Part shown: piece after piece, positions 60,055-63,827 of the stretch
How positions within the stretch are numbered: the stretch's first letter is position 1
Layout: the number at the start of each line of letters is the position of its first letter
Source: Escherichia phage HMD-9
DNA length: 64,000 nt
Strand: one strand, 5' to 3'
Sequence record: PV287714.1
Notes under the pieces: generated by a model
What the model saw: only the letters and a program-made list of their open reading frames with translations
What the model was told of the DNA's origin: nothing
Database searches by the model: none
Made by a program: the position numbers and the translations under genes

Positions 60055-60320
60055 TAATATTTTTCCTCTGGTTGGAACACAGCACGACAAGCCCACATAC
60101 TGGCTTCTTTGAGTTTCGTTTTAGCAATAGTTAACTGATCAAGACTTTCAGCATAATTCTTCGCGAATTCACAGTCTTCACAATTATCTAGTGCTTCCCA
60201 GAATTCATCATATAAAGCATCAAAGATAAGTCCTAAACGAACTTCAGCATCTTTGATAGCATTCACTTTACCGATTTTCTCTTCAGTATGTGGCTTATAA
60301 CCCTTAATATCTTCAATCAT
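60054..60320 (-). CDS. hypothetical protein
   Basis: 88-aa track ORF. Confidence 0.5.
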
Positions 60321-60534
60321 ATTTTACTTTCTCACCAGTACCCAAATCATATTCAACTAAACGAATAGGTTCATGAATGCCATATCCCTGAACAGAAATT
60401 TCTGTCGTAGGATAAATTCCACTAATATCACCCATATTCCACGCTTCATTAAATTGTTGTTCGCCTGAATTACTAAACCATTCGGCGAAAGCATTTAGCA
60501 CATCTTCAGAACCTTCAATAATTATCTTTGCCAT
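60313..60534 (-). CDS. hypothetical small protein
   Basis: 73-aa track ORF. Confidence 0.45.
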   Translation of the reverse strand: MAKIIIEGSEDVLNAFAEWFSNSGEQQFNEAWNMGDISGIYPTTEISVQGYGIHEPIRLVEYDLGTGEKVKYD

Positions 60535-60908
60535 TACAGACTCTCAGTAAAGGTACGAGCGATAACGTCGCGCTGCTGTTCCGGAGTCAGAGAGTTAAAG
60601 CGAACTGCATAACCGGATACACGGATGGTCAGCTGCGGATATTTTTCCGGATGCTTAACTGCATCCTCCAGAGTTTCACGACGCAGAACGTTTACGTTCA
60701 GGTGTTGACCACCTTCAATTTTAACTGTAGGTTGTGTTTCAATTTCAATTTCACGGGCATGTAAACCGTAGAAAATTTCTGGGTCTACAAAAGAGTCCTC
60801 TTTAAAGGTTTTAGAGACAATAATTCGTGCTTGAATACCGTCTTCAAAATAAATAGTACCTTTATGTGTGCCTTCAAGAATTTGATATGCTTTCATATAA
60901 CCTCTCAA
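60534..60908 (-). CDS. grcA: autonomous glycyl radical cofactor (GrcA/YfiD-like)
   Basis: 124-aa track ORF; C-terminal 60 aa match E. coli GrcA incl. glycyl radical motif RVSGYAV; 3' half GC-rich with host-like codons. Confidence 0.8.
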
Positions 60909-61806: not shown

Positions 61807-61948
61807 ATGAATTGTCCATTTCTGTATTTACCCATTACCGCACTTGGGCTCGACCTTATTACAGGTTGGCGGGAATCCCTCATAGAATCATGAGGTCCAG
61901 GTTGTTCCCATGTTATTTGAATGTAAATAGGCCTAAATATAGGCCTTA

Positions 61949-62545
61949 TTAATTACCACGGGCTGCATTAGCAACGGCATAAGCGTACTGAACATTAGCG
62001 TCTTTAAACATACCTTTAGAGGTGTCTATTTCTGCCTTAAAGCCGCCTTTAGCCATAACATCGGCAAATTCTTTACGGAAAGCCATTGCATCAAGACCTT
62101 TCCATGATGATTTGTGCTTGGCGAATTCAAGACCAGCGTAGTTGACAGCCTTAGCTAATTTATTATCAATAACCCATTTACCAGCTTTAGGCACAAACAC
62201 AGGACCTTTCTGTTTAGAGAACAGTTTTAAATTCCAGCGACGAAGGTCAAAGTCAGCTTTAACAAAAGCTGCGTCCAAGTTACTAGCAACAACATCTTCA
62301 ATATGAGCAAATTTAAGTCCGTCAACTTCAATATTTAGGTCGGTACGCCAGCGAAGTCCTTTCCAGGCGAAAGCTTTAAAGTCGGAAGCCTTTGTAGCTA
62401 AATACCGTTCAATAGGAGCTGTTTTAGCGTCAAAACCATTTCCTGGGTTGTCAACGCCGTTTCCTCGGTAAGTCCACTCATCTTTATTAATGCCTTGGAC
62501 CTTTCCTACAGAAGCTTCGGCGATAAATTCTTTATATGTTTTCAT
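61949..62545 (-). CDS. internal protein (IPIII-like) with capsid targeting sequence
   Basis: 198-aa track ORF; N-terminal MKTYKEFIAE CTS; basic, Lys/Ala-rich body. Confidence 0.7.
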   Translation of the reverse strand: MKTYKEFIAEASVGKVQGINKDEWTYRGNGVDNPGNGFDAKTAPIERYLATKASDFKAFAWKGLRWRTDLNIEVDGLKFAHIEDVVASNLDAAFVKADFDLRRWNLKLFSKQKGPVFVPKAGKWVIDNKLAKAVNYAGLEFAKHKSSWKGLDAMAFRKEFADVMAKGGFKAEIDTSKGMFKDANVQYAYAVANAARGN

Positions 62546-62627: not shown

Positions 62628-63026
62628 TTATTTGTAGGTTTTCATCCAATTCTTGAACAAAGCCACGACGTCTTTCTCTTTAACGTTCAGTTTAACGTCC
62701 AACATTTTACCACCAGCTGCTCTCGTTTGGCGAATCTTAGCAGTACCGGTTTCGCCATTCCACTCAACATAATATTGTCCAGCGTTCATTGCAATACCAT
62801 CGCCGTAGTCTTCATTTTTAGAAGTGGTGAAGGCCAGCTTCATAGTCTTAGAGACACGAGCCTGCATGCCTGTCTGAAGGGCATTACGAACGCGAATAAC
62901 CTGAGGAGTGGCCTGGGTCAGGTTCTCATTCAGTTCTTCAGTGAACTCTTCAGATTCAAACATAGCCAAAAGTTCTTTAGATGCAGGAATTACATTCTCT
63001 GCGATAAATTCTTGATACGTTTTCAT
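62628..63026 (-). CDS. internal-protein-like protein with capsid targeting sequence
   Basis: 132-aa track ORF; N-terminal MKTYQEFIAE CTS. Confidence 0.6.
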   Translation of the reverse strand: MKTYQEFIAENVIPASKELLAMFESEEFTEELNENLTQATPQVIRVRNALQTGMQARVSKTMKLAFTTSKNEDYGDGIAMNAGQYYVEWNGETGTAKIRQTRAAGGKMLDVKLNVKEKDVVALFKNWMKTYK

Positions 63027-63089: not shown

Positions 63090-63350
63090 TTAAGCTTTAC
63101 CGCCAGAAATAATTCCGAAGTTGTTAAAATCATATCCAATATCGTCAACATCTACTTTAGGGCTTGCTACAACATAAGCAATTTCACTACGTTTTGCATA
63201 GGTGTTTATTTCTCTACCATCGCCGCCTAGGAAAGAATACCCATTACGTTTTAATGAGCCAAAGTCTTCCGCATCACCAATGAAAGCTTTAACTTTAAAT
63301 TTAGGACCTTTGGCATCTGCTTCAGCGATAAATTCTTGATACATTTTCAT
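63090..63350 (-). CDS. internal-protein-like protein with capsid targeting sequence
   Basis: 86-aa track ORF; N-terminal MKMYQEFIAE CTS. Confidence 0.6.
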   Translation of the reverse strand: MKMYQEFIAEADAKGPKFKVKAFIGDAEDFGSLKRNGYSFLGGDGREINTYAKRSEIAYVVASPKVDVDDIGYDFNNFGIISGGKA

Positions 63351-63356
63351 TTTTCC

Positions 63357-63770
63357 TTAGTAAATTGATTTACCATAGTATTTGTACCAAGTAGGACGTT
63401 GAGCAATTTTTTCGTCTAAGCGTGCTTGACTTATCGCAATGGACGCTTCGGACGGGACATAATTATTACGAAATTCGGCAGGGATGTCAGAAATATCCTG
63501 AACAGTCGTGTCCTTGATTTTGAAACCACGTTTCAAGCATTCAGCGATTAGCTCGATTTGACGTAAACGTAAAAATTCGAGTTTGTCGTAAAAGAATGTT
63601 ACGTGTCCTGTGCCTAAGATAAATGTTGGAGAGATTTTAAAATCCTTTACGCGTTTACCGTTTTTAACATGTTTACGGACTGCACCAAATACGCGTGGTA
63701 ATTCACGATACTCAGCCATAAGATGTTGGTCGGTCAGTTCAGAAACAAGTGTTAAATTGATACGAGTCAT
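63357..63770 (-). CDS. denV: endonuclease V (pyrimidine dimer DNA glycosylase) DenV
   Basis: Track ORF trimmed to [12 protein letters not shown]; about 90 percent identical to T4 endo V from memory. Confidence 0.93.
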
Positions 63771-63780
63771 AATTTCCTCC

Positions 63781-63827
63781 AAGTAGTTGATGAATGTATA
63801 GTATCAAAACCCTTGGAGGAAGTAAAC
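63781..63827 (-). promoter_or_regulatory. early promoter with PeSL-like leader upstream of denV
   Basis: Reverse complement GTTTACttcctccaagggttttgaTACTAT followed by leader catcaactactt. Confidence 0.55.

Follow-up and report, generated by a model that had tools for sequence, protein, structure and literature searches.

In the genome of Escherichia phage HMD-9 (PV287714.1), a small gene changes character halfway along its length, from an AT-rich 5' half to a GC-rich 3' half that encodes a sequence resembling the glycyl radical domain of E. coli GrcA (YfiD). The question raised by this locus is whether the phage captured a host domain and, if host DNA is present, what it replaced, when it arrived, and whether it arrived more than once. 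We analyzed a window of 64,000 nucleotides from this genome, in which the gene is encoded on the minus strand.

The vs.6 gene and its predicted product

The open reading frame first called at this locus, 60534-60908 (-), is real, but its start is not the one initially given. The TTG at 60908 with which the mechanically called frame begins was rejected because it overlaps the ribosome-binding site; the ATG at 60896 is the real start, and the Shine-Dalgarno sequence just upstream (Table 1) overlaps both that TTG and the stop codon of vs.7. The resulting coding sequence of 363 nt has the same length as the one annotated in T4 and in W143, and its own stop codon overlaps the ATG of vs.5 (TAATG). 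Genes are ordered vs.8, vs.7, vs.6, vs.5, vs.4, vs.3, regB, vs.1, as in T4 and also in W143, which puts the gene between vs.7 and vs.5 in the regB-denV interval, the position expected of T4 vs.6 orthologs. The product shares 98.3% amino acid identity with T4 Vs.6, both being 120 residues long, and matches phrog_1209 along its full length (positions 1-121, 5.4e-63). Phages W143 and Pu-Krd-SF4 are 99% identical to HMD-9 over a stretch of 601 nt around the gene, which is matched at 95% or better in more than 480 phage records. Judged by identity and gene order, HMD-9 60534-60896 (-) is the Tequatrovirus ortholog of T4 vs.6/Y06I, and the window as a whole is a segment of a Tequatrovirus (T4-type) genome. 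Y06I had been introduced as an analogous gene carried by T4; identity and gene order make it the same gene, vs.6. It was previously listed among the few open reading frames conserved across all T4-like genomes (PMC1524935). A promoter scan around vs.6 returned nothing above shuffle expectation, and a terminator-like match inside the gene (60700-60714) was disregarded, as it lies on the non-coding strand. Downstream, vs.5 is 73 aa long in HMD-9 (60313-60534, -) and in W143, while the T4 annotation gives 58 aa.

Table 1. Coordinates of features at the vs.6 locus of HMD-9, numbered along the window
Feature	Position	Strand	Basis
vs.6 / Y06I / phage grcA coding sequence, 120 aa + TAA	60534..60896	-	ORF, Pfam, phrog_1209, T4/W143 annotation
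Shine-Dalgarno GAGAGG, 4 nt 5' of the vs.6 ATG	60901..60906	-	sequence and ORF table
Phage-lineage 5' half, AT-rich, diverged homolog of the GrcA N-terminal half	60719..60896	-	GC3 0.18, BLASTP, phrog_1209
Host-derived block, 175 nt, encoding the structured glycyl radical domain	60544..60718	-	DNA identity to grcA, edges, codons, GC
Gly95 codon in RVSGYAV, putative radical carrier	60612..60614	-	aligned to GrcA and PflB glycyl loop
Last three codons and stop, GAG AGT CTG TAA, phage type (E. coli GAA AGC CTG TAA)	60534..60543	-	states shared with unconverted phages

Membership of the product in the glycyl radical family is clear. It scores 67.2 bits against the Pfam model Gly_radical, PF01228 (cutoff 22.2), matches the structure of E. 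coli YfiD/GrcA (PDB 6OWR) with an E-value of 4.6e-42, and matches residues 697-759 at the C-terminus of PflB with an E-value of 4.8e-26. Its C-terminal 60 residues are 100% identical to those of E. coli GrcA, RVSGYAV included, just as the initial annotation had recognized for the last 60 or so codons. Like other proteins of the GrcA family (about 14 kDa), the 120-residue product is a small stand-alone protein and not a full-length enzyme. The NCBIfam equivalog model for GrcA, TIGR04365, aligns to residues 20-120 and gives 154.6 bits, below its cutoff of 170, because the N-terminal half has diverged; despite this sub-cutoff score for HMD-9 vs.6, the T4 protein carries the name GrcA in RefSeq.

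PMC8683613, citing Wagner et al. 2001, reports that YfiD and T4 Y06I are activated by PFL-AE and then restore PFL that has been cleaved by O2. The same source describes residues 61-127 of YfiD as the structured domain, and residues 1-60 as disordered and aiding binding to cleaved PFL (PMC8683613). By analogy with these orthologs, vs.6 would encode a GrcA-type spare part for O2-cleaved PFL, in agreement with the report on T4 Y06I. In such a scheme, O2 would cleave host PflB at its radical glycine, Gly734, the vs.6 protein would dock into the damaged enzyme, and the host activase PflA would place a glycyl radical on Gly95 and so bring formate-lyase activity back. Restored PFL would sustain fermentative energy and the supply of acetyl-CoA in a microaerobic infected cell.

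The surrounding part of the window shows some further features. Three tandem open reading frames of 198, 132 and 86 aa (61949-62545, 62628-63026 and 63090-63350, all -) begin with MKTY(K/Q)EFIAE or MKMYQEFIAE and adjoin denV (63357-63782). The three resemble a cassette of genes for internal proteins that have an N-terminal targeting sequence in common, in a layout that appears unlike the ipIII/ipII arrangement of W143 when coordinates are mapped from the W143 annotation. The middle one (62628-63026) holds a second GC-rich patch at about 62710-62930. Between the 198-aa frame and the vs.8 region, at 61929-61946, lies a perfect 7-bp palindromic hairpin (AGGCCT ATAT/TAAATA AGGCCT) with a terminator-like score on both strands.

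Host-type DNA in the 3' half and the older 5' half

In blastn searches, grcA of every complete E. coli genome (5426 of 5426) agrees at 98.4-98.9% identity with the 185 nt from 60718 to 60534. The 175-nt block within this stretch has one mismatch against the allele carried by about 590 E. coli genomes and none (0/175) against strain Rb-50; overall, identity of the block to E. coli grcA is 98.4-100% over 175-185 nt. By pairwise alignment, this identity begins abruptly at TTGAAGGTGG (60718) and is near random directly 5' of it, and similarity is likewise near random 3' of the vs.6 stop codon. Composition changes along with identity. GC is 0.33 and GC3 0.18 in the 5' half, against 0.49-0.50 and 0.44 in the 3' half; among 185-nt windows of the 64 kb the block is the GC maximum, and 0.03% of windows reach its GC. 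Codon choice switches at the block from phage-type TTA/CTT, CCA/CCT and ATT to E. coli-type CTG (six times), CCG (three times) and ATC. Both halves thus have the character first ascribed to them, AT-rich and phage-like in the one case, GC-rich with host-like codons in the other. When 39001-64000 was compared by megablast with all E. coli genomes, the block was the only match (to grcA, and weakly to pflB).

The block is host-identical and compositionally foreign, which is also how E. coli grcA sequence would look had it entered the contig by host contamination or chimeric assembly. The probability of such an artefact is negligible, however, as some 630-650 independent phage records, those of the T4 reference and the RB collection among them, have this block in frame and with the same edges, and the reading frame runs through both junctions.

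Among codons for identical amino acids, HMD-9 shares 57 of 60 with E. coli (P ~5e-12 at p=0.55), close to the 58 of 60 shared by two E. coli alleles, those of K-12 and FDAARGOS_497. The share of codons identical to E. coli is 69% for K. pneumoniae grcA and 33-57% for unconverted phages. Over the block as DNA, the next-best bacterial genus is at most 91% identical (82 grcA genes compared) and K. pneumoniae 87%, while the 3' halves of unconverted T4-like, T5-like and jumbo phages are 63-85% identical to E. coli grcA. Cronobacter phage leB is an example: its C-terminal domain has 100% amino acid identity to that of E. coli, but its DNA is 84.7% identical. Because DNA identity of the HMD-9 block lies far above that of unconverted phages encoding the same amino acids, the reading of the 3' half as recent host-derived DNA, with E. 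coli specifically as the donor, is supported. The initial annotation had proposed such a recent host origin, with a nucleotide alignment to grcA as the check and, as the sign of an ancient acquisition, DNA identity no higher than the protein predicts; the alignment upholds the proposal on both counts.

Other sources and the opposite direction were considered. The pflB gene was rejected as donor, being only 79.5% identical. In their divergence from Citrobacter, Salmonella, Klebsiella and Enterobacter, the 5' and 3' halves of E. coli grcA run in parallel; the block is therefore native to E. coli, and this congruence with other enterics rules out transfer from phage to host and gives the direction as host to phage. 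Strain Rb-50 matches at 175/175 positions but was not accepted as the donor, since it is 1 of 5426 genomes and the closest phages, W143 and Pu-Krd-SF4, lack the GAG codon found at 60666 in HMD-9; most simply, this GAG would be a mutation private to the phage that happens to match a rare variant of the host. In most E. coli genomes, 2-3 places resemble the block (annotated as grcA and pflB). At least one genome has 21-22, 5-6 such places are on plasmids, and a match to tdcE came from the plasmid collection.

If the 3' half came from the host, the 5' half might be an unrelated, AT-rich phage reading frame to which the glycyl radical domain was fused illegitimately, in a first-time domain capture. 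The sharp break in composition and identity at 60718 is what such a fusion would leave, and the 5' half alone has neither detectable nucleotide similarity to E. coli grcA in pairwise alignment nor a match among NCBIfam models. We nevertheless regard this origin as very improbable, because the 5' half is itself GrcA-like. In BLASTP comparisons of the halves alone, it aligns with GrcA residues 28-67 (13 of 40 identities, 33%, E 6e-6); alone it also matches positions 1-60 of phrog_1209 (1.1e-15), and the NCBIfam GrcA alignment, as noted, starts well inside it. Moreover, complete phage homologs exist. By tblastn, GrcA-like genes occur in 1588 phage records from Straboviridae genera, T5-like phages and jumbo phages, with full-length homologs in Karamvirus, Pseudotevenvirus, Slopekvirus, Krischvirus, Biquartavirus, Tequintavirus (T5-like) and a jumbo Yersinia phage, and in Aeromonas phages as well; those inspected have phage-type codons in both halves. 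Finally, the last three codons of vs.6 are also of phage type, their GAG and AGT states being common to the unconverted phages leB and Matisse, which puts the right crossover near 60544, within the gene; the left one is placed at the conserved V/I-EGGQH codons, at about 60718.

A homologous N-terminal half, together with full-length homologs in other phages, therefore points to a pre-existing phage gene that was partly overwritten. The idea of a captured host domain with which the analysis began holds for the host origin of the 3' half but not as a first capture, since an existing full-length homolog appears to have been partly replaced. On E. coli GrcA the block covers residues 67-124, almost all of the structured domain of YfiD (61-127); the 5' half that was kept takes in most of the disordered region credited with aiding the binding of cleaved PFL (PMC8683613).

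Age and possible recurrence of the replacement

The age of the block was gauged by comparing Tequatrovirus (HMD-9, T4) with Mosigvirus (JS09, RPN187, ST0). Nucleotide identity between the two genera is about 70% in the flanking genes vs.7 and vs.5 and about 89% in the 5' half of vs.6, against 98-99% in the block, and blocks identical at 175/175 positions to the commonest E. coli allele are found in both genera (L100 in the one, RPN187 and L103 in the other). Near-identity across genera so diverged means that the block entered, or was homogenized, after they separated; by this comparison, the replacement postdates the Tequatrovirus/Mosigvirus split. In base-by-base alignment, the left boundary of the block is the same in all Tequatrovirus and Mosigvirus phages examined. 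A different breakpoint for Mosigvirus, seen in blastn with E. coli as query (314-543), was discarded, since the base-by-base alignment gives the same left edge and BLAST had extended through weak similarity.

That common boundary, and a domain 100% conserved under very strong amino acid constraint, would also be expected if a T-even ancestor had made a single ancient acquisition and purifying or codon selection had since kept the 3' half host-like. There is little probability in this account. Selection on the protein leaves synonymous sites unprotected, as shown by phages that have identical amino acids but 57% codon identity; the block is 98-100% identical between genera with flanks only about 70% identical; and its host-type CTG and CCG codons are unlike the rest of the phage.

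Whether host DNA arrived once or many times after the split can be approached through polymorphism within E. coli itself. Two common polymorphic sites in the block define three alleles, TT, TC and AT, all of which occur in phages. Allele TT, found in 2970 of 5426 E. coli genomes, is matched by exact 60-mer in 385 phage records; AT, found in about 590 genomes, in 32; and TC, the K-12 type, in 65. TT and TC are each present in both genera, TC for instance in RB3 and in UGJNEcP1 and ATK47. The HMD-9 block has the AT haplotype plus the private G at 60666. Beyond E. coli, the Jiaodavirus KP179, a Klebsiella phage, has a patch with the same left edge that agrees with K. pneumoniae at 105 of 110 positions and with E. 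coli at 93 of 110. Further 3' the patch is less similar, and the block overall is 89-91% identical to K. pneumoniae, too low for K. pneumoniae to be accepted as the exact donor; we claim only that the Jiaodavirus block looks to be of Klebsiella type, from an older or unsampled donor. Shared alleles in both genera and the Klebsiella-type patch favor repeated conversion of phage by host sequence, and it is on two synonymous third-position sites plus this patch that the suggestion rests. The E. coli-type block is still present in tequatroviruses whose isolation hosts were Yersinia, Salmonella, Citrobacter and Serratia, so that conversion does not follow the host of isolation in any simple way.

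Two accounts of this distribution deserve weight. The first, to which we assign a probability slightly short of even, is ongoing concerted evolution, in which T-even phages, strictly lytic, would time and again take the grcA allele of their present host into their own homolog, by homologous recombination with fragments of host DNA during infection. The second, which is unlikely although by no means negligible, is that a single recent capture was followed by spread from phage to phage among Tequatrovirus and Mosigvirus, with shared polymorphisms arising as parallel mutations. Spread from a single source would accommodate the free recombination of T-even phages, a left boundary that is the same throughout, shared polymorphisms that amount to two third-position sites only, and the persistence of the E. 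coli block in phages from hosts other than E. coli. It accords poorly with the genus-specific flanks on both sides of the block (the 5' half at 89% identity, and among the last codons CTA in Mosigvirus vs CTG/TTG in Tequatrovirus), as exchanges between phages would need to be limited to one and the same short block. The spread account must also explain why identical bases turn up again at both polymorphic sites, at appreciable frequency, in both genera, and why a separate Klebsiella-type patch exists in Jiaodavirus.

Taken together, we hold it very probable that the old GrcA homolog of a T4-like phage had the part encoding its radical domain replaced by an E. coli allele after the genera split, probably repeatedly, and that the gene has a spare-part function. 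T4-like phages have long possessed a full-length GrcA homolog. In the ancestors of HMD-9, homologous recombination with host DNA swapped the segment encoding the radical domain for an E. coli grcA allele, with the limits of the patch set where similarity between phage and host runs out. The phage retained its diverged N-terminal half and the translational coupling to vs.7 and vs.5. Because the amino acids of the domain are strongly conserved, the DNA of phage and host would stay alike enough for recombination.

Several variants of the gene or its surroundings were seen in other genomes. Homing endonuclease genes are annotated directly beside vs.6 in JSE (positions 856-1205 of locus L012) and in ZCEC14, and a double-strand break made by such an enzyme could stimulate gene conversion at vs.6. 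Two Klebsiella phages of different genera, KP179 and Matisse, have the Klebsiella-type LLDAVEH where E. coli has LEDAVKH; in Matisse the codons differ from those of the host, and the shared motif could mean that the protein is matched to that of the host, or that an earlier conversion has since ameliorated. Tequatrovirus Nami has a block with 10 mismatches against E. coli alleles, among them two amino acid changes (N to H, and I to S directly preceding RVSGYAV) in a domain otherwise invariant, which could be gene decay or sequencing error. In vB-Eco-KMB39, vs.6 is matched in two pieces over 415 nt and annotated as two features, suggesting an internal insertion or a frameshift. IMG/VR contig 2706794630_000006 has a full-length grcA of bacterial type, with MITGIQI in its N-terminus and a domain 91% identical to a Yersinia grcA; it may come from the flank of a prophage, from host DNA that was mis-binned, or from capture of a whole gene.

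Significance and relation to known systems

The vs.6 gene and its biochemical role are already known from T4, and what is added here is evolutionary detail. In full-text literature searches, neither the host block at the nucleotide level, nor its post-split age, nor the sharing of alleles was found described; prior notice is possible. T-even phages are strictly lytic, degrade host DNA, and use modified cytosine. The vs.6 gene is a clean, quantifiable case in which such a phage has taken host chromosomal DNA into an existing gene, with one domain replaced and its edges placed to the base pair, although these phages degrade the DNA of the host and modify their own. If recurrence is true, the 175-nt block would be a natural, countable marker of recombination from host to lytic phage, in the wild and in the laboratory. 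The case also carries a caution, as parts of phage auxiliary metabolic genes can be far younger than the genes as a whole.

Compared with E. coli GrcA (YfiD; 6OWR; TIGR04365, IPR011140), the autonomous glycyl radical cofactor, the vs.6 protein is likewise small and stand-alone, with an N-terminal region of similar length and detectable homology. The C-terminal 60 residues are the same in protein and nearly the same in DNA, whereas the N-terminal half has about 33% identity and is 7 residues shorter. The genomic setting differs as well, with vs.6 in an early-region operon of the phage and E. coli grcA adjoining ung and eamB. T4 Vs.6 (Y06I_BPT4) has the length, the neighbors (vs.8, vs.7, vs.5, vs.4, regB) and the E. 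coli-like 3' block of its HMD-9 counterpart, from which it is separated by few point differences only: the HMD-9 block is the A27/T42 allele plus its private GAG, and that of T4 is T27/T42 plus an Arg-to-His change. The unconverted homologs of phrog_1209, including those of leB, Enterobacter phage PG7, Escherichia phage JSE and T5-like phages, belong to the same family with the same architecture and motif, and in T4-like phages they occupy the same genomic position as vs.6; their 3' halves differ in having no step in composition and in their lower DNA identity to E. coli grcA, and these homologs illustrate the gene in the absence of a recent overwrite by host DNA.

Outside this family, the closest parallel is psbA of marine cyanophages, which Zeidner in 2005 and Sullivan in 2006 are said to have described as a mosaic produced by intragenic recombination between phage and host. 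There, as in vs.6, internal segments are traded between the host allele and a phage version of a host metabolic gene, leaving patches of host-like DNA. Hosts, gene and phage biology all differ between the two systems, and in vs.6 the exchanged patch coincides with one structural domain.
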